Shown here: piece by piece, positions 25,783 through 42,156 of the stretch
How the letters are laid out: each line of letters opens with the position of its first letter
Numbering within the stretch: the stretch's first letter is position 1
Source of the DNA: Bacteroidales bacterium
GTDB taxonomy: Bacteria; Bacteroidota; Bacteroidia; Bacteroidales; UBA932
Direction of reading: 5' to 3'
NCBI GenBank assembly: GCA_024402135.1
Contig: JAKSJN010000010.1
Location: forward strand, 6,074-70,073
Length of the DNA stretch: 64,000 bases
The notes under the pieces: generated by a model
Told to the model about the DNA's origin: nothing
The model's database searches: none
The model's input: the letters and a program-made list of their open reading frames with translations, nothing else
Position numbers and translations under genes: made by a program

Positions 25783-27048
25783 TCACTGTTCAGGCAAAGG
25801 CTTGGAAGGATTGACAGGGACACCGTAACGGATTACCTGGTTGGCGGAGACGAGTATGCTCTGGCCATGGTCGGAAATCTTCGCTGAGCATCTGTCGTAG
25901 CAGGCCTTGGCATCGTCCAGCTTCCTGCCCATCTCGGCGTGTGCCTTTGCGAAGTCTGCCACGCGCTCGATCATGGTCTGGGCGGACTGGATGATCTTCT
26001 GCTGGTTCTTGACCTGCTCGATGTTTGTCCATGCTATGGATATCATGCGCAGGAAAGGCATGATGGTCTCTTCGGTAGTGATGAGAACTTTCTGGGCATA
26101 GGCGCTGCGCCAGAGTGTCTGGTCCATCGAAAGCGCCAGCTGGTACGCAGAGCTGTTCGGAATGAACATTATGACATAGTCCAGAAGCCGGTTCCCGCTC
26201 CGCAGGTATTTGCTGTAGTCCTTCTTCGCAAGACGCTTTACCTGGGTGCGGATTGCATCCAGATTGCGTGTCGCGGCATCCTGTCGTGCAGCATCGTCAG
26301 CGGCCTCGATATAGTCGGAAAATGCATTCAGGGACACCTTGGCGTCCAGGATGACATCCTGGCGGTCAGGATAGTGAAGTATGAAGTCGGGACGCATGCG
26401 GCTGTCGCTGTCCTCGCCGACAAGAACAAAGCCGAGTTCATCGCGCAGTGTCTCCTCCTTGTCGAAATCACGCCCTTCCACCAGTCCTTCGGAGGACAGC
26501 ATGTTCAGCAGGATTGTCTCGCCCCAGCATCCCTGGAATTTCTTCTGGCCACGCATCGCTTCCGCAAGACGGTCTGCCTTCTCTCCGACCTTGCTGCTTT
26601 GTTCCCTGAGGGTATCGACAGCGCTCCTGAAGCTTGCTCCAAGCTCACTGTTGCCTTTGATCTGGCTTTCGCGTGCTGCCTGGAATGCCTCTTTCATGGA
26701 TTTGAGTTCCTTCTCGAAATCTCCTGAAATGCTCCTTACCGTCTCTTCTGCCTTGCGGCTGAGTTCTTCTTCCCTCTGTTTGAGAAGGGCGTCGGTGTGT
26801 TCGGTCATTTCGGCCTTGAGTGTCTCTTTCTGGAACTCGAGCGCCTGGGTGTGGGCGTGCTCCATGTCCGAGATACGGGTCTCGTAGTGCCTTTTCATGT
26901 CTTCAAGGTCGCTCTTTCTCTCCTCGATCCTGATGGCGGCTTTCTCTGCCTCGTGCTTCCATTTTGACACGCCAAGTATGTATGTGAGCGCCCAGGATAC
27001 GGCTGCTCCAGCTGCGAAAAATGCGCAGAGTATGGTTGTGTTATCCAT
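25783..27048 (-). CDS. rmuC: DNA recombination protein RmuC
   Basis: N-terminal TM and coiled coil; KFQGCWGE..L, RPDFILHYPD, LDAKVSL, DYVIMFIP. Confidence 0.9.
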   Translation of the reverse strand: MDNTTILCAFFAAGAAVSWALTYILGVSKWKHEAEKAAIRIEERKSDLEDMKRHYETRISDMEHAHTQALEFQKETLKAEMTEHTDALLKQREEELSRKAEETVRSISGDFEKELKSMKEAFQAARESQIKGNSELGASFRSAVDTLREQSSKVGEKADRLAEAMRGQKKFQGCWGETILLNMLSSEGLVEGRDFDKEETLRDELGFVLVGEDSDSRMRPDFILHYPDRQDVILDAKVSLNAFSDYIEAADDAARQDAATRNLDAIRTQVKRLAKKDYSKYLRSGNRLLDYVIMFIPNSSAYQLALSMDQTLWRSAYAQKVLITTEETIMPFLRMISIAWTNIEQVKNQQKIIQSAQTMIERVADFAKAHAEMGRKLDDAKACYDRCSAKISDHGQSILVSANQVIRYGVPVNPSKPLPEQ

Positions 27049-27084
27049 GATAAAGGATTCTATGTGCGGTGATCCCGTACAGTT

Positions 27085-28119
27085 TTAGACGTTGTATACG
27101 TTGGAAACCGTTTCGAGAGGCTCTCCTCCCCAGCGCTCGCTGACATAGTCCAGAGTGTCGTAGAGTTCCTGGACATCCATGCTGGTGACGAGCTTGATTC
27201 TGGTATCCTTGAAGTCCGGCAGCCCCTTGAAATAGCAGCTGAGATGCCTGCGCATCTCGAAAATGCCGCGCACGTCTCCCTTGTACTGTAGGGACAGGGC
27301 AAGATGACGCTTGGCAAGCGCTACGCGATCGTTGACGCTCATAGGTGGCAGCAGTTCGCCAGTGTCCAGATAGTGACGCATCTCGCGGAAGATCCATGGA
27401 TGACCGAAGGATGCGCGTCCGACCATGATTCCGTCGACACCCCAGCGGTCAAACTGTTCCTTGGCGATCTCTGCCGAGGTCACATCTCCGTTGCCGATGA
27501 TAGGGATATGCATGCGCGGATTGTTCTTGACGGCTCCGATCAGGCTCCAGTCGGCTTCGCCCTTGTACATCTGGCAGCGGGTGCGGCCGTGTATGGTCAG
27601 CGCCGCGATTCCGACATCCTGCAGCCTTTCCGCAAGCTCGACTATGATCTTGGAATTGTCGTCCCAGCCAAGCCGGGTCTTCACTGTGACTGGCTTGTCG
27701 CACGCCTCGACGACGGCTTTTGTTATCGCCACCATCTTGTCGGGTTCCCGCATCATGCCGCTTCCGGCACCGCGGCCGGCAATCTTGCTGACGGGACAGC
27801 CGAAGTTGATGTCGACTATCTCGCAGCCATGTCCACCGGCGATCGTCTCCGCCTTGTCGGCCATCTTTGCGGCCTGGACCATCGCTTCCGGGATGTTTCC
27901 GTAAATCTGGATTGCAACCGGGGATTCCTCGGGGAGGGTACGCATCTTCTCTATGGTCTTCTGGGCGTCGCGTATCAGTCCGTCGGAAGATACGAACTCA
28001 GTGTACACCATCGCGGCACCCTGCTCGCGGCAGAGTACGCGGAATGACACGTCAGTCACATCCTCCATCGGCGCCAGAAGGACAGGGCGCTCTCCAAGGT
28101 CAACATTCCCGATTTTCAT
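27085..28119 (-). CDS. dusB: tRNA-dihydrouridine synthase B
   Basis: LAPMEDVTD, VDINFGCPV, VTVKTRLGW, LTIHGRT, IGNGDV, MVGRA; start set at MKIGN. Confidence 0.95.
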   Translation of the reverse strand: MKIGNVDLGERPVLLAPMEDVTDVSFRVLCREQGAAMVYTEFVSSDGLIRDAQKTIEKMRTLPEESPVAIQIYGNIPEAMVQAAKMADKAETIAGGHGCEIVDINFGCPVSKIAGRGAGSGMMREPDKMVAITKAVVEACDKPVTVKTRLGWDDNSKIIVELAERLQDVGIAALTIHGRTRCQMYKGEADWSLIGAVKNNPRMHIPIIGNGDVTSAEIAKEQFDRWGVDGIMVGRASFGHPWIFREMRHYLDTGELLPPMSVNDRVALAKRHLALSLQYKGDVRGIFEMRRHLSCYFKGLPDFKDTRIKLVTSMDVQELYDTLDYVSERWGGEPLETVSNVYNV

Positions 28120-28264
28120 AGACACAAAATTAGGTGTTGTTTTGAAAACTCACAACCTGTTATAATGCCATCTTCATATCCAAGGTGTCAAGATTTGCCT
28201 TTGCTAAAAGCAACCGCTATTGATTTGTCGTATTACACGAAATCAATTATCTTTGCCAGACCAA

Positions 28265-28349
28265 GCCTTGATGGTGAAATGGTAGACACGAGGGACTTAA
28301 AATCCCTTGGGCAGTAATGTCCGTGCGGGTTCGATTCCCGCTCGAGGCA
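28265..28349 (+). tRNA. tRNA-Leu (anticodon TAA)
   Basis: Acceptor stem GCCTTGA/TCGAGGC, D arm TGGTAGAC, anticodon arm ggga-cTTAAaa-tccc, long variable arm, T arm GGTTCGATTCC; CCA not encoded; -7 box TATCTTTG at 28248-28255. Confidence 0.96.
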
Positions 28350-28352
28350 CAG

Positions 28353-28380
28353 AAAAAGACAGCTATTCAGCTGTCTTTTT
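28353..28380. terminator. Bidirectional terminator after tRNA-Leu
   Basis: Perfect 12-bp stem aaaaagacagct/agctgtcttttt. Confidence 0.9.
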
Positions 28381-28381
28381 C

Positions 28382-28556
28382 CTATTCATTGGATGAGCGA
28401 CCACCCTGTAAGGTTGCAGCCTGTATTGGTTGGAGGATTTTCCACAGGAAGAAGGCGGAAATGATGGTGCCAAGAAGCAGCGCGATGACCGAGGCCTCGG
28501 GACCGAATGAGCCGCCGGTGATGATATCGGGGCCGTTGATATTCGCCGTAAAAATG
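28382..28556 (-). pseudogene. Duplicated 3' fragment of the CPBP gene
   Basis: Encodes IFTANINGPDIITGG...GGRSSNE, matching the C-terminus of 34158-35024; unrelated sequence upstream. Confidence 0.85.
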
Positions 28557-28665
28557 AATGCCGCCAAAGCCACGAAAGAGGAAAGAACTGCTGAAAGAAA
28601 ATGTCTTTCTCAGTCGTCCGTCCGAGGAAGACACATGTAGAAACATATCAGGATGGCATCAATGC

Positions 28666-29262
28666 TTATTCCTCGTACGACTCAAGGGTGCTGACTATTT
28701 CATCGGCGGCGTTGATTATCGTCTTTGAGTTCAGATATTCTATGCCCAAGCACACGATAATTACAAGGATTAATAGAGCCACGGCGCACATCGCCTTGGT
28801 TGGAGTACTCCAGGAGGAATAAATTCTTGGTATGAAATACATTATCACAAGTAAGACGGCACCCCAGACTATAATCAGATAGCGGAAGTAAGCCTTTTTG
28901 AATTGCTTGACAGCAATGATGCTTGTCAGGACGTCACAAGAAAGCATCCTGTTGATATCGTACTTCTTGTAAAAAACCAAGTTCAAGACAAAGAGGAATA
29001 CAATCAGTGAACCGGCAACGATAGGATAATACAGCGGAATCTTTTTCAAAATGGTTATTATGATAACCACGGCCATTGCAATTGGAGCTGCGATGTTTGA
29101 GATTATCTTGTCTCTTTCAATTACCGCCACATTTCTCTTGAAGGTCGCCTTCATGATTTCATCATTGACAATCTTCTGCTTGTCAAGATCCTGCTTGAGG
29201 GTATGATATTGCTCTTTAAGCTGTTTCAGCTCTTCGGAGCAGTTCAATTCTTCGTTCATCAT
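28666..29262 (-). CDS. Membrane protein, putative anti-sigma factor
   Basis: Short N-terminal coiled coil plus about 4 TM segments; starts 8 bp after the ECF sigma stop. Confidence 0.6.
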   Translation of the reverse strand: MMNEELNCSEELKQLKEQYHTLKQDLDKQKIVNDEIMKATFKRNVAVIERDKIISNIAAPIAMAVVIIITILKKIPLYYPIVAGSLIVFLFVLNLVFYKKYDINRMLSCDVLTSIIAVKQFKKAYFRYLIIVWGAVLLVIMYFIPRIYSSWSTPTKAMCAVALLILVIIVCLGIEYLNSKTIINAADEIVSTLESYEE

Positions 29263-29270
29263 TCTGAGTG

Positions 29271-29750
29271 TTAATTGTTCATCTGTTTCAATTCTTCTTT
29301 GATTCTGTGAAGCTGGAAGGAAACGTTCTTGACTGATATGCCGATTATGGCTCCTATCTCCTCATACGACATTCCCTCAAGCCAGAGGAGAATAATGGCA
29401 CGGTCAATCAGCCCCAGGCCGTTGATCCTGTCATAAAGGCGCTTGGTCTGAAGCGATCTGTCGCTGATACCTTCAAACGGGTCGATGTCAATGCTGAGAG
29501 GCAGGTGCTGCCCTTCGCGTTTCCTTTTCTTCTGCAAGTTCAGGCAGCAGTTCATGGCGATTCTGAACACCCATGTTCTGGCATCGGATTCCCCGCGAAA
29601 ATCATCGTAGCCCTTCCACAGTTTGACAAGTACTTCCTGGAACAGGTCGTCGACTTCATCCCTGTCCTTTGAAAACATCAGGCAAACAGTATAGATTGTG
29701 CTCTTATGCCGTTCGACCATTTTTGTGAATTCCAGTTCCTTTATGTCCAT
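29271..29750 (-). CDS. ECF RNA polymerase sigma-70 factor
   Basis: Start reassigned to MDIKELEF; DDLFQEVLVKLWK, RTWVFRIAMN, LWLEGMSYEEIGAIIGIS. Confidence 0.92.
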   Translation of the reverse strand: MDIKELEFTKMVERHKSTIYTVCLMFSKDRDEVDDLFQEVLVKLWKGYDDFRGESDARTWVFRIAMNCCLNLQKKRKREGQHLPLSIDIDPFEGISDRSLQTKRLYDRINGLGLIDRAIILLWLEGMSYEEIGAIIGISVKNVSFQLHRIKEELKQMNN

Positions 29751-29943
29751 CTTCAAGTGAATCAAACACTCATTAGACAACGAAGTTGCATAAAAACTAT
29801 ATAAAAACACTAAAAATAGCTGTGGGTATGATTATCCCTTGATAGTCGACACTCAATATTTATTGATATTCGCAATAATATTTATCGTTTTTCGTAAAAT
29901 TGGCATTACCTTTGCTTTTGAGTTTTGAAAACGATAAATCATT

Positions 29944-30420
29944 ATGAAACTTTCAAATCAAAGGGCTATCAAAACCATCAGTCTCGTTGCTCTTGCTATA
30001 GGAGCCATTTATCTGTTCTTTGTCTATTACAGCACCGTCTGTTGTTTGTGGTTCAATGAAGCTCCCGACAGAATCATATGGAGCACAACTCAGAAACCTT
30101 GGCAGATTGCTGTTCTGGCGGGCTATGTATTAGGGGCAACGGCAGTATTCTCACTGTGCTCAGCTATAGAGATTAACATTCTGAAGGGCTTGAAGTCCGG
30201 TAATCTCTTTCCTTTCAAGAATTTCGTCCTCATTATCCTTACAGCCATAATGGTAGGAGTCACAATATTCTTCAAGGCCAATGTCAATGATGTGATGAAA
30301 GGAGTCGAATGCTCTGTCCTGGACAGCAACTGCATTTTCGTTCCACTCGTCATAATTGTATTCGGTCTTCTATATAAACAAGCCTCCCTTGCGATGGAGG
30401 ATAGTAATCTTGCCATTTAA
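29944..30420 (+). CDS. DUF2975-like membrane protein
   Basis: 4 TMs; GNLF motif; C-terminus A..EDSNLAI; upstream of a Cro/C1 HTH gene. Confidence 0.72.
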   Translation: MKLSNQRAIKTISLVALAIGAIYLFFVYYSTVCCLWFNEAPDRIIWSTTQKPWQIAVLAGYVLGATAVFSLCSAIEINILKGLKSGNLFPFKNFVLIILTAIMVGVTIFFKANVNDVMKGVECSVLDSNCIFVPLVIIVFGLLYKQASLAMEDSNLAI

Positions 30421-30432
30421 TCTTAGAAAAGT

Positions 30433-30888
30433 ATGAAAATCAAGAATCAGAGGTCGCTGATCTCATTATGCTATTTAACCCTCTTCTTTTGTGCTCTATG
30501 CCTGTATGTCGCGGCAGCTGATATTATTTCAGGCCTTAAAGGATTTGAATTCTCCCCTGACCCGAAATTTCCGCATTACTTTATATTCTATGGGAAGCAT
30601 TTTTTCTCCATTGCTCTGGTTGGGGTACTGTCTGCCATAATTGTCAACACTCTCAAGGGGATAAAGACCAACAATGCTTTCCCAAAAAAGAATGTCACAC
30701 TGATTTATGTTCTTGCGGTTGTGGATATGCTGATGCATTTCTGCTCTTGCAACTGGCATATTCTGAATGGAGAAAGATATATCAGTATTGATGGCGATGT
30801 CCTGATTACTCCTATGGTGCTGGTTATATTTGGAATACTATACTCAATGGCACATAAAGCATCTGTTGACAGCAATCTTGCGATATGA
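30433..30888 (+). CDS. DUF2975-like membrane protein (paralog)
   Basis: 4 TMs; NAFPKKN; C-terminus ASVDSNLAI; ATGA overlap with the HTH gene. Confidence 0.72.
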   Translation: MKIKNQRSLISLCYLTLFFCALCLYVAAADIISGLKGFEFSPDPKFPHYFIFYGKHFFSIALVGVLSAIIVNTLKGIKTNNAFPKKNVTLIYVLAVVDMLMHFCSCNWHILNGERYISIDGDVLITPMVLVIFGILYSMAHKASVDSNLAI

Positions 30889-31124
30889 TTACAATTAACC
30901 TTGACATAGTCCTTGCCACAAGGCGGATGACTCTAAGCGAATTGTCCGAAAAGGTGGATGTGAACCTGACAAACCTATCCATCCTCAAGACCGGCAAGGC
31001 GAGGGCCATACGCTTCACCACCCTCAATGCCATCTGCCGTGTTTTGAACTGTAAACCCGGGGATATTCTTGACTATGAGCCGGATCCGGAAGGAATCCAG
31101 ATCCTGGAGGAAGACGATGAATAA
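30885..31124 (+). CDS. Cro/C1-type HTH regulator (YozG-like)
   Basis: NLDIVLATRRMTLSELSEKV...NLSILKTGKARAIRFTTLNAICRVLNCKPGDIL. Confidence 0.92.
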   Translation: MITINLDIVLATRRMTLSELSEKVDVNLTNLSILKTGKARAIRFTTLNAICRVLNCKPGDILDYEPDPEGIQILEEDDE

Positions 31125-31126
31125 TA

Positions 31127-31777
31127 ATGCGAGAACTTCTTTGCATATCTATTTTGCTGAGTCTGGGCGTAATCGGTCTTAGGGCGCAGGAGTATCCAGT
31201 TACCGTCCTTGACGGGCAGAAAATGCAGATCGATTCAACATTCTTGAGTACAATGACGAAGCCGGCAGTGTCGTCAACCTTCCTGCATCCGCGGTTCAAT
31301 GAGTTACAGGTCCCATCAATATTGGTGATGCCCCAAGGTTTCGAGACCATGGAACAGCGGGCTGCGAGAATCAATTTCCAGACTTTCAACTCTGTAATGA
31401 CGTCCGTTGACCTGAATCTGTACTGGCACAGACTCCCAAAGATGCCAAAGCCCTGGAAGCAGACACTTGGAGCGGCAAAACTATTTCTGTCGAATCCCAA
31501 TGGCTTCCCGGAAGGATGCGTGCCGTTGATGAATGCATCATTTCCTTTTATCTATGCAAAGATTCCCGGCATGGCGCCTTATGACAATCCGTATACGTCC
31601 GATCAGTTCCCGAAATGCATAGATTCCGAATATGATTTCGCAACAGGGACTTATAAACAAGTGATGGTTGACTGGGCGGAAGTGCAGAATAGAATGTCCG
31701 CCACCGGCCAGTCTAGCCAACCTGTTCCTTCCGTTCCTATTACTCCAGTCGAGAGGATGATGCACGGAACGCAATAA
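31127..31777 (+). CDS. Hypothetical secreted protein
   Basis: Signal peptide ending LRAQ; 2-bp gap after the HTH gene; Pro-rich; no recognised motif. Confidence 0.65.
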   Translation: MRELLCISILLSLGVIGLRAQEYPVTVLDGQKMQIDSTFLSTMTKPAVSSTFLHPRFNELQVPSILVMPQGFETMEQRAARINFQTFNSVMTSVDLNLYWHRLPKMPKPWKQTLGAAKLFLSNPNGFPEGCVPLMNASFPFIYAKIPGMAPYDNPYTSDQFPKCIDSEYDFATGTYKQVMVDWAEVQNRMSATGQSSQPVPSVPITPVERMMHGTQ

Positions 31778-31792
31778 AAGCACCTCAAAAAG

Positions 31793-32165
31793 ATGTATAG
31801 AAATTCTATTGTCCATAATAGCCATTCTTCATATCACTATTATCGCAAATGCTCAGAGCGATCATACGATATTCGAACGAGTCGTCAATGAGCAGGGACA
31901 AGGGATAGAATAAGTCAACATCGGAATACCGAAGGACACCGTTTTCACCGTTTCCGATATCAACGGCTATTTCTCCCTGGATATTCCAAAAAGCAAAACC
32001 AATTCGGACGAATATGGCACCGTACTTTTTGAAGAGGCGCAAAAAATCCTTCCAAATTACGGGATGACACTAAGAAAAGATATGACAGACGGAGACCCTG
32101 ACTATGAAGAAAATTTCACAGTTATCTATAAAACAAAATGCCCCTCAGCATTGGTCTGCGTGTAG
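31793..32165 (+). pseudogene. Chimeric pseudogene: signal peptide + carboxypeptidase-regulatory-like domain fused to an N-acetylmuramoyl-L-alanine amidase (amidase_3) fragment
   Basis: Removing one A near 31801 gives MYRILLSIIAILHITIIANAQ...VVNEQGQGIE*(TAA 31911)VNIGI...TVSDINGYFSLDIP, then in frame KTNSDEYGTVLFEEAQKILP..GMTLRKDMTDGDPDYEENFTVIYKTKCPSAL. Confidence 0.75.
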
Positions 32166-32309
32166 TTGGTATAGAATATCTTGACTAGTTCTTTGGCTTG
32201 AAATACTTATGTCGACAATTAGTCGGTAAACATGAGCGATCGAATAGGGGGAAATACAGAATAAGACATATTTTTTGCTAAGCATCGAGTTTTTTCTTAC
32301 ATTTACCCA

Positions 32310-32317
32310 TAATTTTG
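32310..32317 (+). promoter_or_regulatory. Candidate -7 box (TAATTTTG) for the TIGR04255 operon
   Basis: TAnnTTTG match 47 nt upstream of ATG 32365; AT-rich context makes a chance match possible. Confidence 0.4.
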
Positions 32318-32364
32318 GGGATGTTGGCCTCATATTTGTGTAATTTGAAGAAAAACATTTGGTT

Positions 32365-33096
32365 ATGACTAATCAACACCTTCCTATAAGGCTTAAAAAT
32401 TGCCCTATTGTTGATGCTCTTCTTGAGATACGCTTCACTTCAAATCTCAATAGAAGTGCAGTGTTTGGTTACATTTATAGCCTTTTGCAGAATTCTTATC
32501 CAGGACCTGTATGTAATCTTCCTTTGTCTCAGATTCCTGATGCAATAAGAGAAAAGGATCCGAATCTTCAATTTAAACCCATCTATAGAATAGATGGTAC
32601 TGAAACAGTCCTTCAAATTGGGCCTGATGTGATTACTCTTAGCTCCAAGTTGCCCTATATCGGGTGGGACAAATTAGAGTTACAAGCAATTGAAATTATC
32701 TCTCGGCTTAAAGACAAGGGTGCGATAGACAAGGTCCTTCGTTTTGGGCATAGGTATATTAATTTCTTTGAAGGATGCATTGATGAACGATTGAATATGT
32801 CTGTCAACTTTGTTGATGGCTATTGTGCAAAGAATATCCAAATTAGGTCAGAAGTTAGCGATGGTTTTTTCACGAACACTTTGCAATATTCTAATTCCGC
32901 CGAGTATCGCCCAGTAGATATCTCCGTTGTAAAAAAAGGCTCCATTATTGATATTGATACATTTAGGTTTTACTCTGATGATTATTTTCTTAACAACATT
33001 AAGGAAGAAATCAACACAGCTCACGTTAGCGAAAAGAATCTATTTTATTCTTTGTTAAAACCCGATTTCATCATTGAACTTAATCCAGAATATTAA
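32365..33096 (+). CDS. TIGR04255 family protein
   Basis: LKNCPIVDALLEIRF, YP, LQIGPDVI, PYIGWD, RFGHRYINFF, IIDID, C-terminal LFYSLL pattern; ATG at 32365 (track start is an upstream TTG). Confidence 0.8.
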   Translation: MTNQHLPIRLKNCPIVDALLEIRFTSNLNRSAVFGYIYSLLQNSYPGPVCNLPLSQIPDAIREKDPNLQFKPIYRIDGTETVLQIGPDVITLSSKLPYIGWDKLELQAIEIISRLKDKGAIDKVLRFGHRYINFFEGCIDERLNMSVNFVDGYCAKNIQIRSEVSDGFFTNTLQYSNSAEYRPVDISVVKKGSIIDIDTFRFYSDDYFLNNIKEEINTAHVSEKNLFYSLLKPDFIIELNPEY

Positions 33097-33098
33097 AC

Positions 33099-33413
33099 AT
33101 GGATACATATTCTTCTAATTATTTGCTTCTCCCTGGTCTTTCTGCGATTACATTGACAGTAACAGGAGTGTCCCCGATAAATGTATGTGATATTGATTAT
33201 TCCCCTAGTAAAATAGTGGAAGTATTCGTTAATCCAACTTGTCCATATTCACCTTCTACTAGTTCAACGACTAACGAAACCATAATCATTAATAAAGATT
33301 TGGATGATCTTCTTGCAATCGAGTCTTTTGCCCGTAAAATATTGGATGGGATGACTCCTATTGAAGAGTCAATACAATCAGTGATTAACGACCATTTCTG
33401 GGAGATGCTATGA
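33099..33413 (+). CDS. Small acidic protein (candidate antitoxin)
   Basis: 2-bp gap from the upstream stop and ATGA overlap with the downstream gene; S/T/P-rich N-half and helical acidic C-half ending DHFWEML. Confidence 0.7.
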   Translation: MDTYSSNYLLLPGLSAITLTVTGVSPINVCDIDYSPSKIVEVFVNPTCPYSPSTSSTTNETIIINKDLDDLLAIESFARKILDGMTPIEESIQSVINDHFWEML

Positions 33414-34042
33414 TTCTAGATGATGAGATAAAAATATATCTCCCAAAATATTTATCTGCGGAAAATTACGAAACTCTCATTAGAGAATTAAAGTCTTTCC
33501 CAGATAATATCGATGGTAGGATGTATACTACAATAGCAGAAGAAAATCTGCTCTGTCAAGGTGATGTTATTAGCAATATGCCTGTCGTAGAAATTGAGCA
33601 TCTGGATAAACCAATAAAAAATAAGGATTGTATCATTCTTTCAAATACTTGCGATATCAATTTAGACAATTCGAGATTATTCCCCGCCCGCATAATGTAT
33701 GCGCCACTAGTTGAATTAAAGAAGTATAAGGAAGTTCTTCTAAAATATCCAGGCAATAGTGAGCAGAAAGTAAACGACCACATTGCAAGTATAAAGAGTC
33801 AAAAAATATCACAGATTTTATATCTTCCTACTAATGGGGAAATGCAGGAATCTATTGTGTTCCTTGACCGAGTCCTGAATATTGATAGCCGATATATAGA
33901 TAGGATGACGCTCAAAGAAAGACGAGTGGTATCTTTAAGTGATTATGGATTTTACATGTTTCTTTTCAAAATATCGGTTCATTTTTCTAGAATGCAGGAA
34001 AATGTAACCAGAGGCTGCAAAGAAAAATCAGGGGATAATTGA
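33410..34042 (+). CDS. Hypothetical protein with PemK/MazF-like motif order (candidate toxin)
   Basis: QGDVI...CIILSNTCD...MYAPL...LYLP...IVFLDRVLNID...VSLS...C-terminal helix follows the PemK/MazF strand order; fold call is by eye. Confidence 0.6.
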   Translation: MILDDEIKIYLPKYLSAENYETLIRELKSFPDNIDGRMYTTIAEENLLCQGDVISNMPVVEIEHLDKPIKNKDCIILSNTCDINLDNSRLFPARIMYAPLVELKKYKEVLLKYPGNSEQKVNDHIASIKSQKISQILYLPTNGEMQESIVFLDRVLNIDSRYIDRMTLKERRVVSLSDYGFYMFLFKISVHFSRMQENVTRGCKEKSGDN

Positions 34043-34106
34043 TTCTTGCCATTTGTCAACGGAACTGTAAACGAAAACAGATAACCGACTGATGCACAAC
34101 GGTATA

Positions 34107-34332
34107 TCGATTCCCGCTCGAGGCACAGAAAAAGACAGCTATTCAGCTGTCTTTTTCCTATTCATTGGATGAGCGACCACCCTGTAAGGTTGCAGCCTGT
34201 ATTGGTTGGAGGATTTTCCACAGGAAGAAGGCGGAAATGATGGTGCCAAGAAGCAGCGCGATGACCGAGGCCTCGGGACCGAATGAGCCGCCGGTGATGA
34301 TATCGGGGCCGTCGATATTCGCCGTAAAAATG
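34107..34332 (+). repeat. 226-bp direct repeat, copy 2 (attR side)
   Basis: Begins with the last 19 nt of tRNA-Leu (tcgattcccgctcgaggca), includes the terminator copy at 34129-34156 and the true CPBP 3' end. Confidence 0.95.
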
Positions 34333-35024
34333 GATTCTCCCGCATCTTCTCCAGATACTGCGAAGCCAAAGACATTGCCTTGGGTGAAGTTCCATGCCCA
34401 ATGGATGCCGATTGGCAACCATAGAGAATTCGAGTATTTGTAGGCGGCTCCGAGCAGGATTCCAGCTTCCATCACAATTGCAACAGAACTCCATATGCTT
34501 GCGCCTGGATTGAACATATGGGCAAACCCAAAGATCAGGGCAGAAATACCCAATGCCCACCACAATCCGAATCTGTCATCTATCAGCCTGAAGATGACGC
34601 CGCGGAATATGACTTCTTCGCAACAGGCTACAAGAAAAAAGAGGCAAAGGTTCGAGATTATATCGGACCAGTGCGGCGAGACGTATTGTATACTGTAACA
34701 ACCTGTCACATAGAGCAGCCCTGTCAGCAATACGAAGAATGAGAATCCGATCAAGACGCCGCAGAGAATGTTCTTTCCTTCATTTCTGGCCAATAATTCC
34801 CATTTCCATTGCTTTTCAAACAACCGTGTCCATCGCCGGAATATCGCAAGAATGAATACAGCAACAATGAGCACTGCAACATCTTTTGCGACCGGCTGAG
34901 GGATACCCCAGAAGCCTATGCCAATACCGTAAAGGACAGTAAAGAGGATAACGCCAAGGATTAATTCCAATATCCATTTCCACAATGGAAGTGAATCACT
35001 CTTATATTGTCTGCCAATCGACAT
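34158..35024 (-). CDS. CPBP family (Abi/CAAX-like) intramembrane glutamic endopeptidase
   Basis: ACCEEVIFRG, FGFAH, IGIHWAWN, TGGSFGPEAS; multiple TMs. Confidence 0.92.
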   Translation of the reverse strand: MSIGRQYKSDSLPLWKWILELILGVILFTVLYGIGIGFWGIPQPVAKDVAVLIVAVFILAIFRRWTRLFEKQWKWELLARNEGKNILCGVLIGFSFFVLLTGLLYVTGCYSIQYVSPHWSDIISNLCLFFLVACCEEVIFRGVIFRLIDDRFGLWWALGISALIFGFAHMFNPGASIWSSVAIVMEAGILLGAAYKYSNSLWLPIGIHWAWNFTQGNVFGFAVSGEDAGESIFTANIDGPDIITGGSFGPEASVIALLLGTIISAFFLWKILQPIQAATLQGGRSSNE

Positions 35025-35070
35025 GATACTGGTTGTTTAGTTCTCTGGAAGGAATAATATCAAACACTGC

Positions 35071-36114
35071 CTATTTCTTCGCTGCAGGGCTGTATTTTTT
35101 CTTCAGGTCTTCAAGATACTGACCGCTGAAGTCAACCTTGAGCTCTACCCAAAGAGGAAGGTGGTCTGACATCTGGAAAGTTCTCCATGTCTTCCTGAAG
35201 TAGTCCTGGACATTGCCCTTTGCCACCTGCTTTGCATCCATCAGTGGGACATATGCCTCATAGTCGTTCTCGTTGTAGACTGTCTTGGTAAAGTTGAACG
35301 AGCCCGCATGCTGTATGTTCTCGTCGAATATCTGCATGGTATCGGACAGATGAAGGTTGAATGCAATCTGGTCGTAGTGGTTAGTTTCTCCAAGGTCAGT
35401 CGGATGCTCCTTGATCGGGGACGGAATGTGGAAACCGTTCTCCTCGAGGGCGGTCATATATCTGTCGTCCACCTTAGGGATGTTGAAGTCACCGAGGACA
35501 ACGTAGTTCGTATCTTCCTTGGCTGCTCTCTTGGTCAGGAATTTTGCAAGACTGGCAATCTCTTTCTCTCTCCTGGCCAGACCTTCCTTGCCGCTGCCGT
35601 AGTAGATATGGACGGTTGCGATGTTAAACTTGAACCAACCTGCCTGGAACGACACACAGAACGGGGTACGGGCAAACTGCAGCTCGTCAATGAGTCCATC
35701 CTTCGGCAGGACTATTTCGCCAGCCATATTCTTGAACGTGACCTTGTTTGTATCATACAGGAAAGCTATGCACTCTCCATTGCCAGGAGCGCCCTCGGTG
35801 GTATCGGTGGCTATATGGCTCCAGTTCTTTCCAAGTATCGACACAACTTTCTCCAGCTCCTGCCTCTGGTCACGGACTTCCTGGATGGCGATGAGGTCGA
35901 AGCGGCTAAGGATCTCAGCTATATAGTACAGACTCTCCTTGGTGCGGGAGTCCTTTCCGAATGCACGAATGTTCCAGGTCGCCAGCAGGAGGGAGTTGCG
36001 TGCGGTCTTTTCGGGGATTTCCCTGTCAAGCTGCGCCCTGAGGGCAATCAGGTTGTCGATGGTACGCTGTCTCATTGCAGCATCCTTGATCTGTTTGATT
36101 CCGGTGTATAGCAT
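35071..36114 (-). CDS. Endonuclease/exonuclease/phosphatase (DNase I-like) family protein without signal peptide
   Basis: ATWNIRAF, IAIQEV, VHIYYG, LGDFNI, YDQI, SDHLP. Confidence 0.88.
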   Translation of the reverse strand: MLYTGIKQIKDAAMRQRTIDNLIALRAQLDREIPEKTARNSLLLATWNIRAFGKDSRTKESLYYIAEILSRFDLIAIQEVRDQRQELEKVVSILGKNWSHIATDTTEGAPGNGECIAFLYDTNKVTFKNMAGEIVLPKDGLIDELQFARTPFCVSFQAGWFKFNIATVHIYYGSGKEGLARREKEIASLAKFLTKRAAKEDTNYVVLGDFNIPKVDDRYMTALEENGFHIPSPIKEHPTDLGETNHYDQIAFNLHLSDTMQIFDENIQHAGSFNFTKTVYNENDYEAYVPLMDAKQVAKGNVQDYFRKTWRTFQMSDHLPLWVELKVDFSGQYLEDLKKKYSPAAKK

Positions 36115-36218
36115 AATCTTGGTTCATGTGTGGTGAACAAATATATAAAAAGAATTAAAATCTTCACCTGTCTCTATCATCTTCTCGAGGTTGGGAAAAG
36201 CCGTTGCTCCAGCCACAG

Positions 36219-36256
36219 AAAAAGCCTGGTATTCAGAACTAGAATACCAGGCTTTT
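36219..36256. terminator. Intrinsic terminator downstream of the esterase
   Basis: Perfect 15-bp stem aaaagcctggtattc/gaataccaggctttt. Confidence 0.85.
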
Positions 36257-36292: not shown

Positions 36293-37441
36293 CTATTTGA
36301 AAGCCTTCTGAGCGAACTCGTAAAGGCTGCGGCGCCATGTGTGCCACTCGTGGGCTGTGCCCTCGGATACGTAGCTTACTGCATTCACACCGATCTTCTT
36401 GAGAGCCGCAGCCTGCTCTACTGCAGGACGGTTCTCCTTGCTGCCTGTGCTCATGAAGATGAGCTTCGCAGTCTTCTCGAGTCCCTTTGCCTCCTGGAAA
36501 GCCTCGACTGTCATGCTGCCGCCGCTGAACATTCCGATGTAACCGAACATTGTAGGGTTTGCAAGAGCGATTCGGCCTGTCTGGCCGCCACCCATTGAAA
36601 GACCTGCCATACCGCGATGTGCAGCATCGGTATAAACACGGAACTCAGTTTCTACCATAGGGATGATGTCATTGAGAAGAACAACCTGGAATGCATCGTT
36701 TGCGGCTGCACCCTCAGCTGGAGCATACTTGCCGGTGAGGTGGATGTTCTGTCCCTGGCCATAATCCATGACGATGATGAACGGAACGGCCTTCTTCTCT
36801 GCGATCAGGTTGTCCATGATCTGGGCGGTGTGACCCTGAACTGCCCATCCGTACTCATTCTCGGCATTTCCATGCTGAAGGTAAAGGACTGGATATTTCT
36901 TGGTTGGATTCAGGTCGTACTCGTGAGGGAGATATACATAGCAGTGACGCATGCTCTCGGTTGTCTTTGACCAGTAGTACTTCTCTACGATAGAGCCCTG
37001 AGGAACATCCTTGACCTGCCAGAAATCCATGTCGGTTGACGGAATCTCGATTCCGCTGCCCCAACGGCCTGCGCCGAAGAATGACACGGTGCCTGGATCA
37101 GGCATAGGGGTGCCGTCAACGATGATCTGGTAATAGTGGAAGCCGACATCCTGCGGAGCTGAAGTACCGGTCCATACGCCGTTCTCATCCTTGGTCATCT
37201 CGTAGCGGCGGCCCAGGTCGAGCTGAACTGAGGTAGCGCCTGGTGCACGGAGCTGTACACGAACGGCACCCTCGGAATTGACCATAGGATACTGCTTGCC
37301 TGGCTGGTTTACGAGATTGGGCTTGAAATCCTCTTTTGTGGCTGTGTAAGAAGGAACGGTAGCGTTTCTCTGCTGCTGGGCATTTGCCGAAACAGCGGTA
37401 AGCATCATGATAGACATGATGGGGAGAAGAAACTTTTTCAT
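36293..37441 (-). CDS. Secreted carbohydrate esterase (CE1-like feruloyl/acetylxylan esterase) with N-terminal CBM48-like domain
   Basis: Signal peptide; YPVLYLQHG, GLSMGG nucleophile elbow, HEWHTWRRSL. Confidence 0.88.
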   Translation of the reverse strand: MKKFLLPIMSIMMLTAVSANAQQQRNATVPSYTATKEDFKPNLVNQPGKQYPMVNSEGAVRVQLRAPGATSVQLDLGRRYEMTKDENGVWTGTSAPQDVGFHYYQIIVDGTPMPDPGTVSFFGAGRWGSGIEIPSTDMDFWQVKDVPQGSIVEKYYWSKTTESMRHCYVYLPHEYDLNPTKKYPVLYLQHGNAENEYGWAVQGHTAQIMDNLIAEKKAVPFIIVMDYGQGQNIHLTGKYAPAEGAAANDAFQVVLLNDIIPMVETEFRVYTDAAHRGMAGLSMGGGQTGRIALANPTMFGYIGMFSGGSMTVEAFQEAKGLEKTAKLIFMSTGSKENRPAVEQAAALKKIGVNAVSYVSEGTAHEWHTWRRSLYEFAQKAFK

Positions 37442-37477
37442 GATTTGGTTATTAATATGGTTAGTAAATATAGCAGA

Positions 37478-37960
37478 TCAATAATTCGCGGTGTCGCCGT
37501 TCGGGTCGGAGAGACGATAGTCAAGACCGGAAACGATTGGCTGGACCTCACGGGAAGGACCCTCGACCTCGAATCCGCCGGTGCACGAAGAGATAGTTAT
37601 GCGGTCCTCGCCCAGACGAAGGATGCGAAGGAATATCGAACGCTTCACGTAAGTCACGACCTCAGCTTCGGATGTCTCGAGCTTGTATCCGCGGCCTTCC
37701 ATATATCCGCCGATCTCGGACTTGAGCTGGGACACAGGCTTTGCTGTGTGGACCATGCGGGTCAGGTAGCCGAAACGTGGATAGAAAGCCGATACGAATG
37801 CGAACATCGCCGCGATCAGGCCGACTGATTTCCAGCCCTCGCGGAACATCACATTGACGTCGGAGCTGACGAATCCAAGGACAACAAGGATAGCCAGGGT
37901 AAGGCACACGATGACGCTGGTATACACGAAATATTTGACTGCGCGGATGATGTACTTCAT
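37478..37960 (-). CDS. Hypothetical membrane protein
   Basis: Start reassigned to MKYIIRAVKYF; two N-terminal TMs plus a small soluble domain. Confidence 0.7.
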   Translation of the reverse strand: MKYIIRAVKYFVYTSVIVCLTLAILVVLGFVSSDVNVMFREGWKSVGLIAAMFAFVSAFYPRFGYLTRMVHTAKPVSQLKSEIGGYMEGRGYKLETSEAEVVTYVKRSIFLRILRLGEDRITISSCTGGFEVEGPSREVQPIVSGLDYRLSDPNGDTANY

Positions 37961-38085
37961 GATTGGTGTCGTTTTTGTTTGTACAAAGGTATGGAAAACT
38001 TGGTTATTGTAGATTTTTGGCGAACCAAAAAGATGCATAACCGCAGGGAAATTGTATCTTTGTAAGTCTTTAAAAGCAAAAAATC

Positions 38086-38994
38086 ATGAAAGAAGATCCA
38101 ATCGAGCGCCTCGACCGCGAGGCAAGAGAGAAGAAGTCAGGTCTCAGAACTATCATGTACGCGCTTGCGGCAGTCGCTGTGCTGCTCGCAGCTGCCCTTG
38201 CATACATCTGGATCCAGAAGTCAAGTCTGGTCAAGGAACTTAACGTCGAGAAGCAGGATCTCACCGAGCAGATCGTTGCCCTCCAGCAGGACTATGAAAG
38301 CCTCAGCACCGAGTACGACGTGATCAACACTCAGCTCGACTCTTCAAAGGAGGAGGTCGCTCAGCTCGTTGAGCGCATCCAGAAGACCGACGCAACCAAC
38401 CGCGCAAAGATCCGTCAGTACGAGAAGGAGCTCGGAACCCTCCGCAGCATCATGCGCAACTACATCGTACAGATCGATTCACTCAATACCCTGAACAAGC
38501 AGCTCACCGCAGATGCAGCAGCAGCAAGACGCGACGCAGCAGAGAGCAAGAGAGCTAACGCAGCACTTACCCAGCAGGTTGAGAACCTCAGCAGCCAGGT
38601 TGCTGTCGGTTCAGTGATCAAGGCCCGTGGCATCGGCATCGAGGCATACAACAGCACCGGCAAGGTAACCGACCGCAGCAAGAACGTTGTCCGCATGCTT
38701 ACCACCCTCAGCCTTGTCGAGAACGATCTCGCACCTAAGGGACCTGTAAGAGTCTATATCGTGGTAAAGGATCCTGATGGAAACATCCTCACCAACGAGA
38801 ACAGCGCAGGTTTCGAGTGCGCAGGCGAGGCCCGCACCGCATCCGCTTCCCGCGAGGTTGACTACGAAGGCAACGAGGTTACCATGAGCATCTACCTCAA
38901 CGACCTTGCTGACAAGTGCGTCAAGGGTATCTACAAGGTTGAGGCATATACTTCAATGTCATACCTTGGCAGCGCCGAGACCATGCTCAGATAA
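38086..38994 (+). CDS. Membrane-anchored coiled-coil protein (conserved hypothetical)
   Basis: Single TM, long heptad region, beta-rich C-terminal domain; -7 box TATCTTTG about 25 nt upstream. Confidence 0.75.
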   Translation: MKEDPIERLDREAREKKSGLRTIMYALAAVAVLLAAALAYIWIQKSSLVKELNVEKQDLTEQIVALQQDYESLSTEYDVINTQLDSSKEEVAQLVERIQKTDATNRAKIRQYEKELGTLRSIMRNYIVQIDSLNTLNKQLTADAAAARRDAAESKRANAALTQQVENLSSQVAVGSVIKARGIGIEAYNSTGKVTDRSKNVVRMLTTLSLVENDLAPKGPVRVYIVVKDPDGNILTNENSAGFECAGEARTASASREVDYEGNEVTMSIYLNDLADKCVKGIYKVEAYTSMSYLGSAETMLR

Positions 38995-38997
38995 GAC

Positions 38998-40128
38998 GTG
39001 ATCTACGTTCACGTTCCATTCTGCAACAGTTTCTGCACCTATTGCGATTTCTATTCGGAGATCTGCTCCGCAAAAGACTCGCAGCAGGTGCAGAGCCGTT
39101 ATATAGCCTCCCTTCTTGATGAGATCAATGCCAGGAAGGAAGAACTTGCCAGATCCAGGAAAGGCGAGCCGGACACTCTCTATTTCGGAGGCGGTACTCC
39201 TTCGGTCCTTTACCCGGGAGCAATCAGGACCATCATTGACGCCATCAATGAAGCCAGCGGCAACGCCATGCCGTTCGAGGAATGCACCATCGAAGTCAAT
39301 CCCGATGACGTCGTGAAACGCGGTGGCGCTTATGTGAAGGAATTGCTCGAAACAGGGGTCAACAGGGTAAGCATGGGCGTTCAGTCCCTCGACAACGGCA
39401 TACTGAAATGGATGAACCGCCGCCATGACTCGGACGAGGCAAGACAGGCTGTCCAGATTTTGCGTGAGGCGGGAGTCGCCAACATCAGCATAGACCTCAT
39501 CTTCGGCCTGTCGCAGCTGAGTGACGCGGAATGGGACAATACTGTAAGACAGGCGCTGGATCTTCAGCCAGACCATATCTCCGCCTATGCGCTCAGCATC
39601 GAGCCCGGCAGCGCACTGAACAGGATGGTAGAGAATGGCAGCTATATCCCCGCTGACGAAGAATGCTGCGAACGCCAGTACAATAGACTCTGCCAGCTTC
39701 TCAAAGAAGCCGGATTCCACCATTACGAAATATCCAACTTTGCAAAGCCGGGCCGGGAGGCAGTCCACAACTCCGCATATTGGACCAGGGTACCATATGC
39801 CGGACTCGGTCCTGGAGCTCACTCGTTCATCAAGACTGGCGATGTCGAAAAGCGGCTCTGGAACAGCCAGGAGCTCCATTCATGGACCAGCGATGAAGAA
39901 CTGCTCAGCATCGAAGATGCCGCGACCGAGAAAGTGATGCTGGCGCTCAGGACTGACAAAGGCATGGACAGAACGGAACTCGAACAGATCTGCGGCAGGG
40001 ACAGGATAGAAAAAATGCTCGGGGAAGGTCTCCTTGAGCTCCATTCCCCGAGTCATTCTCAATTTATACGGATTCCCGAGAGCCGCTGGTTCATCTCAGA
40101 CGGCATAATCTCGGATCTGTTATCCTAG
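38998..40128 (+). CDS. hemW: Radical SAM heme chaperone HemW (HemN-like), GTG start
   Basis: YVHVPFCNSFCTYCDF, YFGGGTPS, RVSMGVQS, DLIFGL, HYEISNF, HNSAYW. Confidence 0.88.
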   Translation: MIYVHVPFCNSFCTYCDFYSEICSAKDSQQVQSRYIASLLDEINARKEELARSRKGEPDTLYFGGGTPSVLYPGAIRTIIDAINEASGNAMPFEECTIEVNPDDVVKRGGAYVKELLETGVNRVSMGVQSLDNGILKWMNRRHDSDEARQAVQILREAGVANISIDLIFGLSQLSDAEWDNTVRQALDLQPDHISAYALSIEPGSALNRMVENGSYIPADEECCERQYNRLCQLLKEAGFHHYEISNFAKPGREAVHNSAYWTRVPYAGLGPGAHSFIKTGDVEKRLWNSQELHSWTSDEELLSIEDAATEKVMLALRTDKGMDRTELEQICGRDRIEKMLGEGLLELHSPSHSQFIRIPESRWFISDGIISDLLS

Positions 40129-42011
40129 ATTCCGATAGGCTCACACTTCTCCTTGAGCCACTCAGCCACCTCGGCAGGAAGCCTTGGTGAAAGGGTGTCG
40201 TATACTCTCTTGTTATATGCGTTCAGCCACTCGATCTCGTCTCTGTTCATAAGTTCTGGAAGGACTGCCGATGTATCGATATGGCAGAGGGTAAGAACCT
40301 CGAACTTGAGCCATGTGCCGAACTCGCTTGTTCCGTCCTCGACAACGAGCATCTGGCTCTCGTGACGGACACCGTGCATGCCCTCGCGGTAGAGACCTGG
40401 CTCATTGGTAAGGATCATGCCTGGCTGGAATACGATATTGTTGAAGTTCTGGCGGAACTCCTGCGGGCCTTCGTGTACTCCGAGGTAGAAACCTACGCCG
40501 TGTCCGGTACCGTGACCGAAGTTGCGATGGGTCTGCCAGAGCGGATTGCGGGCAAGGATATCAAGGTGCGGGCCGCAGGTTCCGATAGGGAACACAGCCT
40601 TGGCAAGGTTGATATGGCAGCGGAGCACGAGGGTATAGTCCTCCTTTTCGAGTTGGGTGCACTCGCCCATAGGGGTTGTCCGGGTGATGTCGGTGGTTCC
40701 GAAGAGGTAGTGACCGCCTGAATCGTTGAGGTAGAGGCCGTGAGGCTCGATCTCCGGAGCGCCGACCTGTGGGGTTACGTAATGAGGAAGAGCTGCGCCT
40801 GGACCATATGCGGAAATGGTAGAGAAGCTGTCTCCACGGGTTCCGTCACATTCAGCACGGTATGCAGTAAGACGAAGGGAAGCGTCCCATTCTGTGACTG
40901 GCTTGCCGCCGTCTGCGCTGTCCTGGACTGCTGCCTCGAGCCAGTAGAGGAACTTCTCCATCGCTATACCGTCTTCGACGTGAGATGCGCGCATTCCGTC
41001 CATCTCGCTCTGGTTCTTGATCGACTTCATCATCTGGACAGGAGAATCTCCGCGTACAACGGCTCCTGGAGCGGCATTCTTGTCGAATACCTGCTGGAGG
41101 TAGAAGTTCAGGGTTGAAGGATCCACGAAGATCTTCTTGATGCTGCCGTCGGTCATCGACTGTGCGAGTACGTCTGCAACCTCGTCGTAAGCGTAAAGAC
41201 TAACTCCGCCTGCGCAGACTGCCTTGAGGGTCTCCTTGCTCTCGTCGTCAAGCTCGTCATAGCTGTCCTTGATCACGAACCATTTTGCATCCTCTGCGGT
41301 AACAAGAAGGTAAGAGATGGTAACCGGAACGTACTCGATATCGTTTCCGCGGACGTTGAGGGTCCATGCAATCTCGTCGAGTGCGGTGAGCATCATCGCG
41401 TCGCAGCCCTTATCGGCGATAGCCTCGCGGATGCGTGCAAGACGTGTCTCGCGGGTTTCACCGGTATAGCTTGCGCTAAGGTTGAACATCGGGGTCTGCG
41501 GAATGGCAGGACGATCCTCCCAAAGTTCGGACATGAAATCCGGGGCGCTTACGATGCTGAATGTGTCGCCCTCGCCGTCAGCCTGGCGTCCTGTAGCCTT
41601 GAATGCGTCGGCAAGAGTATCGATTGCGCTGACACGCTGGCAGAGTCCATCCACTGCAACCGTGACGCAGCGGCCGCTGCCGTCAGCAGGGAATGCATAT
41701 TTTGAAAGCCACTCCGGGATGAGTACCTGCTCAGGGACGCGGGTCTTGTGGAGCTCCACTCCGGTGCCGGGAAGCTGTATGCCAGCCTGGATGAAGAAAC
41801 GTGTGTCGGTCCAGAGGCCGGCATGGTCGGCTGTCACAACGACGTCGCCGCACTCGCCGGAGAAGCCGGTGAGCCACTCGACCTGCTTCCATCTCTGTCC
41901 TGGGTATTCGCTGCTGTGTGGATCCGAGCCGGTAAGGATGATTGCATCCCATCCGTTCTTGTCCATCAAGGCACGCAGTGCCTCTATTCTCTTTGCGTAT
42001 TTGTTTTCCAT
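40125..42011 (-). CDS. Aminopeptidase P family (M24B, creatinase N-domain type)
   Basis: DPHSSEY, LWTDTRF, DSGGHYLFGTTDITR, HGTGHGVG, VHEGP, NEPGLY. Confidence 0.92.
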   Translation of the reverse strand: MENKYAKRIEALRALMDKNGWDAIILTGSDPHSSEYPGQRWKQVEWLTGFSGECGDVVVTADHAGLWTDTRFFIQAGIQLPGTGVELHKTRVPEQVLIPEWLSKYAFPADGSGRCVTVAVDGLCQRVSAIDTLADAFKATGRQADGEGDTFSIVSAPDFMSELWEDRPAIPQTPMFNLSASYTGETRETRLARIREAIADKGCDAMMLTALDEIAWTLNVRGNDIEYVPVTISYLLVTAEDAKWFVIKDSYDELDDESKETLKAVCAGGVSLYAYDEVADVLAQSMTDGSIKKIFVDPSTLNFYLQQVFDKNAAPGAVVRGDSPVQMMKSIKNQSEMDGMRASHVEDGIAMEKFLYWLEAAVQDSADGGKPVTEWDASLRLTAYRAECDGTRGDSFSTISAYGPGAALPHYVTPQVGAPEIEPHGLYLNDSGGHYLFGTTDITRTTPMGECTQLEKEDYTLVLRCHINLAKAVFPIGTCGPHLDILARNPLWQTHRNFGHGTGHGVGFYLGVHEGPQEFRQNFNNIVFQPGMILTNEPGLYREGMHGVRHESQMLVVEDGTSEFGTWLKFEVLTLCHIDTSAVLPELMNRDEIEWLNAYNKRVYDTLSPRLPAEVAEWLKEKCEPIGI

Positions 42012-42156
42012 GATATGAGGTTATTGTTCAAGTGTCTTCAAATATACTGATGTTTTGTCTTATTGCCAACCGTTGAGGGTACTAATATGGAACGTGAGCC
42101 ACAAGCTTGCCTTTACGGAAGGAAATGTATTCGGCGAGAATTGTTAACTTTGCGCC

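Follow-up and report, generated by a model that had tools for sequence, protein, structure and literature searches.

The window analysed here is a 64,000-nucleotide (nt) stretch of contig JAKSJN010000010.1 from an uncultured, Candidatus Cryptobacteroides-like gut Bacteroidales bacterium. It carries a small islet between a tRNA-Leu(UAA) gene and a gene for a CPBP-family intramembrane protease, bounded by a long direct repeat (Table 1). A repeat search of the window returned 28331-28559 and 34107-34335 (229 nt, 99% identical, offset 5776 nt). Base-by-base comparison showed that 28331-28556 corresponds to 34107-34332 over 226 nt with one mismatch (28537 T / 34313 C), exactly as an earlier reading of the letters alone (the sequence-only reading) had stated. 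Beyond this point a second mismatch (28557 A / 34333 G) and two matching bases are followed by divergence, which accounts for the 229 nt with two mismatches. A repeat of 226 nt is too long to have arisen by chance. Both copies contain the end of the tRNA-Leu(UAA) gene, a hairpin terminator (13 pairs and then a T-rich tail) and the 3' end of the CPBP gene, comprising the stop codon and about 58 codons. The sequence-only reading had listed the same three components; its figure of 19 nt for the tRNA part has to be corrected to 20 nt.

The cargo between the copies spans 5.5 kb, over which the GC content falls from ~55% to 33-45%, and holds nine open reading frames (ORFs). Scans with Pfam, NCBIfam, PADLOC and PHROGs detected no integrase, recombinase, relaxase, transfer or replication protein among the nine, in agreement with the earlier statement that no integrase lies between the copies; six of them have no informative family, and four of these no match at all, so that a novel enzyme is not strictly excluded. 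The membrane protein downstream of the extracytoplasmic function (ECF) sigma factor may be its anti-sigma partner. At the other end of the cargo, phrog_5464 and phrog_4575 are both PHROG families of unknown function, and homologues of the 210-aa protein are hypothetical proteins of Pseudomonas phages (28-34% identical). These matches suggest that the last three genes form a phage-borne or phage-related accessory or defence-like module. Assignment of the cargo to an identified defence system was rejected, the cargo having no PADLOC match, and a literature search found no mention of TIGR04255. A blastn search against PLSDB gave only short matches to the regulator gene.

Table 1 Features of the tRNA-Leu(UAA) islet and adjoining host genes, in window positions; L091 is a sibling locus described in the text.
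Feature	Position	Strand	Evidence and remarks
tRNA-Leu(UAA) gene, integration target, intact and intron-less	28265-28350	+	ARAGORN; Rfam RF00005, 59.8 bits
Repeat copy 1, element-borne	28331-28559		20-nt tRNA 3' core 28331-28350; terminator 28352-28381; CPBP 3' fragment 28382-28556
CPBP 3' fragment in copy 1	28382-28556	-	Pseudogene; copy 1 ends in the GGAT microhomology, reading GAAT here
Illegitimate joint, host CPBP/islet interior	28556-28560		L091 342-346, ~315 nt inside the canonical islet
198-aa membrane protein	28666-29262	-	Family scans; downstream of sigma factor, same cargo operon (28666-29810)
ECF sigma-70 factor	29271-29750/29810	-	Pfam Sigma70_r2 and r4_2; TIGR02937, 92 bits
Two paralogous ~150-aa membrane proteins	29944-30420, 30433-30888	+	Family scans
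HTH_26 regulator	30885-31124	+	Family scans
216-aa protein, signal-peptide-like N-terminus	31127-31777	+	Family scans
TIGR04255-family protein	32359-33096	+	phrog_5464, E = 1e-34
104-aa protein	33099-33413	+	Member of three-gene module 32359-34042
210-aa protein	33410-34042	+	phrog_4575, E = 1e-46
Right arm of islet	34043-34106		Identical in L091; holds AACTGTAAACGAAA at 34063-34076
Repeat copy 2, resident host copy	34107-34335		tRNA 3' remnant 34107-34126; terminator 34128-34157; 3' end of intact CPBP gene
Intact CPBP/Rce1-like intramembrane protease gene, 288 aa	34158-35024	-	Pfam PF02517, 73 bits; source of the captured fragment
Endonuclease/exonuclease/phosphatase (EEP)-family gene	35071-36114	-	Always alongside CPBP in this species; conserved block ends at 36132
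Degenerate third repeat copy with hairpin	36206-36256	+	36206-36236 overlaps a strong 15-pair hairpin (36220-36256), downstream of esterase gene

Related loci were collected by protein look-ups, of which those with CPBP, Dus and a 245-aa protein returned nothing usable and those with the EEP, 210-aa, 198-aa, sigma-factor and helix-turn-helix (HTH) proteins returned useful loci. An exact look-up of the EEP protein yielded ten contigs of the same species with flanks 97-99% identical to those of the window. The gap between tRNA-Leu and CPBP proved to be a hot spot with at least five states in this one species: empty, and occupied by island A (the islet of the window), B, C or D. The sequence-only reading had proposed a search for the empty site and a comparison of the locus across strains, and two contigs (L081 and L083) have the empty site, with a single repeat copy: the 3' half of the tRNA gene, the terminator and CPBP follow one another once and contiguously. 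Both have C at the mismatch site, like copy 2, and the arrangement of copy 2 is that of their single copy, with differences confined to polymorphic bases.

A look-up with the 210-aa cargo protein recovered a sibling, L091, whose cargo is 99.1% identical over 5567 nt (window 28563-34129) on a single contig running from the tRNA through the islet into host genes. On its left, the intact tRNA-Leu 3' end is followed by a hairpin of the element's own and a 319-nt arm; on its right, the remnant TCTATTCCCGCTCGAGGCAC is followed by a different terminator and different genes. The repeats of L091 are thus of the usual ~20 nt; there is still no integrase, and no CPBP. Its right flank matches the metagenome-assembled genome (MAG) L002 at 93.5%, which places L091 in a sister species lacking CPBP and EEP at tRNA-Leu. 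L002 itself, the closest species representative (86-91% nucleotide identity), was found by scanning genome contigs with the Dus protein; its dus neighbourhood has a different gene order and contains no tRNA-Leu, CPBP, EEP or cargo, and it served solely as an anchor for the flank of L091. By these alignments the islet has moved between species with only 86-93% identity in their own DNA. A metagenome scan with the 210-aa protein added one short locus (L097), 70% identical and without context.

Comparison with L091 revealed that about 315 of the 319 nt of its left arm are missing from the window, where the host terminator and the CPBP 3' end stand in their place; the last bases of the arm are the microhomology GGAT. 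Three-way alignments located this 4-nt microhomology at the novel joint, inside the CPBP coding sequence and not at the attachment (att) core. The native CPBP gene reads ATGGATT there (...AAAATGGATTC), L091 reads TGGGATG (...TTTGGGATGATGCC) and the window ATGAATG (...AAAATGAATGCC). At 39.5%, the GC content of the left arm of L091 resembles that of the island (40%) rather than that of the host flank (49.5%), and an open frame of ~100 codons that crosses the breakpoint in L091 is cut in the window; the L091 form is therefore taken as the older one. Both novel junctions of the window (28556/57 and 34106/07) were found again in Logan contigs from at least four runs and three studies. The junction of island D with its tRNA remnant lies within 1 nt of the 34106/34107 junction of the window, and since island D bears an integrase and uses that core, the right junction of island A is an ordinary att junction.

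The two arms of the canonical islet share a motif, TGTAAACGAAA. It is located at 34063-34076 in the right arm, and the left arm of L091 contains it along with another, partial copy 15 nt upstream; sharing of this extent was equalled in 0.9% of shuffles. The shared stretch in the right arm (AACTGTAAACGAAA) may be an arm-type binding site.

Logan contigs (k=31) of four runs were aligned to the locus. Those of X1, the source sample and strain, showed no differences from the window. X2 is another strain, differing by 1.4-4.2% in the dus/rmuC flank and by 0.9% in CPBP-EEP; its island contig (5630 nt, 28507-34136) differs from the window at 2 positions. The islet has thus been transferred across host backgrounds. 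At 34323, X2 has T on the contig leading into CPBP (depth 22.9) and C on the contig leading into the cargo (depth 20.7), from which it follows that the right end of copy 1 (28537 T, 28547 C) stays with the cargo and that copy 2 has the host alleles. Site 34313 is polymorphic in the population, with T in L084, L086, L088 and L090 and C in the others; copy 1 therefore carries a CPBP allele that circulates in the species, which is compatible with its having been captured in one strain and inserted into a different one. The repeat, a single contig in both X2 and X3, departs from the window sequence at three sites (Fisher p = 5e-4 against the cargo). Concerted evolution between the copies was considered as the cause of these variants and withdrawn: Logan contig building pops single-nucleotide bubbles, which would explain them, and the contig probably represents the better-covered host copy.

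Taken against its sibling, the window copy has lost element DNA at one end and gained host DNA at the other, across an illegitimate joint. Beyond its core, copy 1 equals the 206 nt adjoining the core of the empty site, and these travel with the cargo in X2. We consider it likely that the islet is an integrase-less, att-flanked element resembling the cis-mobilisable elements (CIMEs), reshaped by an aberrant excision of the lambda dgal type or an equivalent unequal exchange and inserted by Campbell-type integration. Imprecise excision that captured downstream host DNA had been one of two options offered by the sequence-only reading, and it is supported by the replaced arm, the 4-nt microhomology, the empty sites within the species and the allele linkage in X2.

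The order of events that we infer would begin with an islet that targets tRNA-Leu(UAA) at its 3' end, a position used by several unrelated elements in this Bacteroidales lineage, and that has, as in the sister species, core repeats of ~20 nt and its own 319-nt left arm. A single illegitimate exchange at GGAT would have connected the islet interior, ~315 nt in, with the CPBP gene at a point 206 nt past the core and tRNA. Occurring on one molecule, this exchange would excise a circle of 5776 bp made up of the cargo, the right arm, the core, the terminator and the CPBP fragment, a product that would have lost the left arm of the islet and gained the host core, terminator and CPBP 3' end from the other side. 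Campbell-type integration of the 5776-bp unit into an empty tRNA-Leu/CPBP site would then generate the observed order of repeat copy 1 (R1), cargo, right arm, repeat copy 2 (R2) and CPBP. The crossover could be catalysed at the 20-nt core by an integrase supplied in trans or could be a homologous one anywhere in the 226 nt, and an unequal exchange between sisters followed by excision of the first copy would be an equivalent route. If the shared motifs are arm-type sites, those on the left would be gone from the window copy and site-specific excision may no longer be open to it, so that homologous recombination across the repeats would be its sole remaining route. RecA-mediated excision or phase variation of the 5776-bp unit is plausible from the length of the repeat; in the source sample the island is as deep as its flanks. 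A stronger form of this idea would make the unit an integrase-free, homology-driven cassette that enters and leaves tRNA-Leu/CPBP strains by a single RecA crossover, with at least two independent insertions and a sigma-factor and defence-like cargo that is reversibly present or absent; we regard it as doubtful.

Several points weigh against the proposed origin. The joint is not a clean splice of the two available parental sequences: both read GGAT, the window reads GAAT, and at 28561-62 the window departs from L091 as well. L091 is the only canonical sibling context recovered; the loci recovered include no parent element with an integrase and matching arms, and the reciprocal scar, the left arm of L091 (...TTTGGGAT) fused to a truncated CPBP at 34336, was not seen among them. 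Apart from the window, no read or contig covers a repeat copy from end to end. In the k=31 contigs the repeat is reduced to a single 206-nt contig that has two entries and two exits and fits both an integrated islet and an empty site plus a circle. Finally, aberrant excision with re-integration is indistinguishable from unequal exchange in situ followed by excision. The last of these is an account in its own right: a microhomology-mediated unequal sister exchange would give a tandem duplication, the first copy would be excised at the cores, and the result, identical in structure, would spread by homologous recombination in the flanks without ever forming a circle. No transfer of a non-replicating circle would be required, and recombination between strains is evident throughout the locus. 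However, copies made in this way should be identical at birth, whereas copy 1 has T and copy 2 has C at a polymorphic site in two backgrounds. In X2, moreover, the cargo is near-identical only as far as R2 or a point within it, host alleles being present at 34323 and 34443; this would call for a right-hand crossover within ~200 nt, an unlikely outcome of ordinary replacement through the flanks. Together with the T/C difference, this abrupt end of near-identity gives the circle route a slight advantage, and we judge the in-situ origin unlikely.

The collapsed repeat, through which flow is balanced either way, would also accommodate a chromosome with an empty site and a separate 5776-bp circular episome or excised form that the assembler threaded through the shared 226 nt. 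The depth of the repeat contig cannot serve as a copy-number test, because it is 1.2-1.5x rather than 2x even in the source sample. The depth of the island relative to the flank is close to 1:1 in independent samples (32.6 vs 28-32 in X1; 20.7 vs 21-24 in X2), which a non-replicating circle could not sustain; the lower island depth in X4 is attributed to a co-resident strain with island B. Scans with Pfam and NCBIfam found no Rep family and no mobilisation gene in the cargo, nor was a partition gene recognised; the cargo has no plasmid-like similarity, and the same cargo is demonstrably chromosomal in L091. These depths, the lack of replication functions and plasmid relatives and the chromosomal sibling make the integrated form far more likely, and we consider threading of an episome very unlikely. 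The second option of the sequence-only reading, two related islands in tandem that each begin with tRNA 3' remnant, terminator and CPBP, would make the left fragment a decayed gene of the first island and 34107-36114 an older island. CPBP-EEP has a slightly low GC content (44-50%), has no counterpart at the syntenic position of the sister species, and is followed at 36206-36236 by a degenerate third version of the tRNA end and terminator start (26 of 31 nt). That version, however, has just 9 matches to the last 11 core bases and lacks the first nine altogether. In strains with the empty site, CPBP-EEP stands directly beside the tRNA with no other island; copy 1, at 99.6% identity to the resident gene and with an allele circulating in the species, is a piece of that gene and not a diverged paralogue; and L091 lacks any CPBP. 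The tandem-island account is thus not supported and strikes us as highly improbable. CPBP-EEP may nevertheless be older accessory DNA, given its absence from the sister species and the weak third repeat; the stretch at 36206-36256 may be the relic of an old att site or merely a similar terminator.

The preferred reading, aberrant excision or equivalent exchange followed by Campbell-type integration, has close counterparts among known systems. Aberrant excision of phage lambda produces the specialised transducing genomes dgal and bio, and lysogeny by these makes a duplication according to the Campbell model. As in lambda dgal, element DNA was lost at one end and adjacent host DNA gained at the other across a joint with a few bases of microhomology, and re-insertion turns the captured host segment into direct repeats; the differences are that no phage, packaging or helper is in evidence here and that the capture is just 206 nt, with no functional gene. 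NBU1 of Bacteroides has an oriT and a short common core. Both NBU1 and MTnPi4 of Prevotella intermedia, mobilisable elements with tRNA-Leu 3' ends as integration sites, encode a tyrosine integrase, NBU1 also encoding a MobP relaxase (PMC5704250). The islet shares with them the phylum, the tRNA-Leu 3' end as target and an insertion that restores the tRNA, but of the integrase, MobP relaxase, oriT and short common core listed for them it has none; no tyrosine integrase or MobP relaxase domain was detected in the cargo.

A CIME is defined in a review of integrative and mobilisable elements (IMEs) as an att-flanked element without integrase and transfer genes (PMC5704250). The islet has att flanks (a 20-nt core at both ends, canonical cores in L091 and the island D junction within 1 nt) and no integrase or transfer genes of its own. 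It therefore resembles the CIMEs of Streptococcus thermophilus and other bacteria in its attL/attR-type repeats at a tRNA 3' end, and its site is also used by the integrase-bearing island D, so that by analogy tandem accretion and cis-mobilisation are conceivable. It differs in that the recovered loci include no parent integrative and conjugative element or IME with matching arms from which it might have decayed, and in that the window copy has 206 nt of host DNA for one arm and hence a 226-nt repeat in place of a short core. With its five or more states at one site in one species, the locus also resembles tRNA hot spots that hold alternative defence or toxin-antitoxin islets; the distinguishing feature here is state A, with its long repeat of host origin, and not the hot spot as such.

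The locus is a clear natural example of a known process and requires no new kind of element and no new mechanism. Its unusual aspects are that empty site, canonical islet and derivative can all be compared, and that a site-specific arm has been swapped for host homology in the derivative. It shows how an integrase-less islet can exchange its own attachment arm for host sequence. The swap probably removes candidate arm-type sites for site-specific excision and yields a repeat long enough for ordinary homologous recombination, offering one route to the fixation of an island or to mobility driven by the host. Island-finding software, which expects att repeats of 15-60 bp and an integrase, would mis-delimit or miss such an islet. 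The locus also illustrates that one tRNA site in an uncultured gut species can hold many alternative small cargoes, among them toxin-antitoxin, abortive-infection (Abi) and sigma-factor modules.

Among the other occupants of the site, island B (~2.4 kb; L082, L084, L085, L088) encodes a 192-aa protein, AbiEii and a metallophosphatase. Island C (~2.9 kb; L087, L089, L090) has the same 192-aa gene together with a HipA-like kinase split into two ORFs, with an HTH, and an HNH protein. The two islands have their left ~740 nt in common, consisting of the 192-aa gene and a terminator of their own. Their right ends lie inside CPBP, within 1 nt of each other (34208-34210) and without a tRNA remnant, and the sequences touching the CPBP joint are unrelated; the equivalent window positions are 28350/28351 and 34209/34210. 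The native terminator and the final 17 codons of CPBP are missing from both arrangements. One possible cause of these ends is that CPBP contains a secondary recombination site, where GGATTTTCC resembles GATTCCC of the core.

In island D (L086:5694-8635), the tRNA remnant lies 200 nt from the start of a 474-aa tyrosine recombinase gene (Phage_int_SAM_5, 41 bits; Phage_integrase, 29 bits), which is followed by a Fic-domain gene; the other end of the island lies past the contig end. Judged by these domain matches, island D is a candidate source of an integrase acting at the tRNA-Leu core. It was rejected as the parent of island A on the grounds that the two have no similarity outside the core and that the arm motif is absent from D. 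No homologue of its integrase occurs in the 64-kb window.

Differences between the cargoes of the window and L091 are unevenly spread: 19 of the 53 differing alignment columns fall within 265 nt (30456-30720), in the second of the small membrane-protein genes (30433-30888). This cluster may be a recombination patch or a fast-evolving segment.

In strains with the empty site or with island B or C (L081, L082, L085, L089), a 211-nt insert interrupts the tRNA-Leu(UAA) gene between U34 and A35 (L081:11220-11430, minus strand; window position 28298/28299). The 5' exon ends in U and the insert in G, and the insert matches the Rfam Intron_gpI model over its full length with 36.4 bits, below the gathering score of 50 (E = 1.5e-7). 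ARAGORN misses these intron-split genes. A full-text literature search found no report of a group I intron in tRNA-Leu of Bacteroidetes. By this match and its placement, the insert is a predicted group I intron at the classic cyanobacterial and plastid position that is polymorphic within a gut Bacteroidales species, the gene of the window being intron-less.

The wider neighbourhood varies as well. Compared with the sister-species MAG L002, rmuC-dus (25785-28133) and the segment from the esterase gene to hemW (36293-42069) are each inverted and adjacent (window 20002-42069), representing either a rearrangement between the species or a misjoin in one MAG contig. Between dus and tRNA-Leu, other strains carry a ~5.9-kb block (L081:11523-17437) that is absent from the window (28177-28218) and encodes a BlaI-like repressor, an M56/BlaR-like protein, a TPR protein and a CarboxypepD_reg TonB-type receptor. 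The loose contig ends at 28177 and 28218 in runs X2 and X4 are due to this block. To the right of CPBP-EEP (36132/36133), the neighbour is either an esterase gene, as in the window (L082, L084, L088, L090), or an AraC regulator and a DHO_dh/4Fe-4S protein abutting EEP (L081, L083, L085-L087, L089). An inversion of 28218-36132 was considered as the origin of the loose X2 and X4 contig ends and discarded, the ~5.9-kb insertion or deletion and the AraC/DHO_dh context explaining them instead. Position 36132/36133 is a further rearrangement breakpoint.

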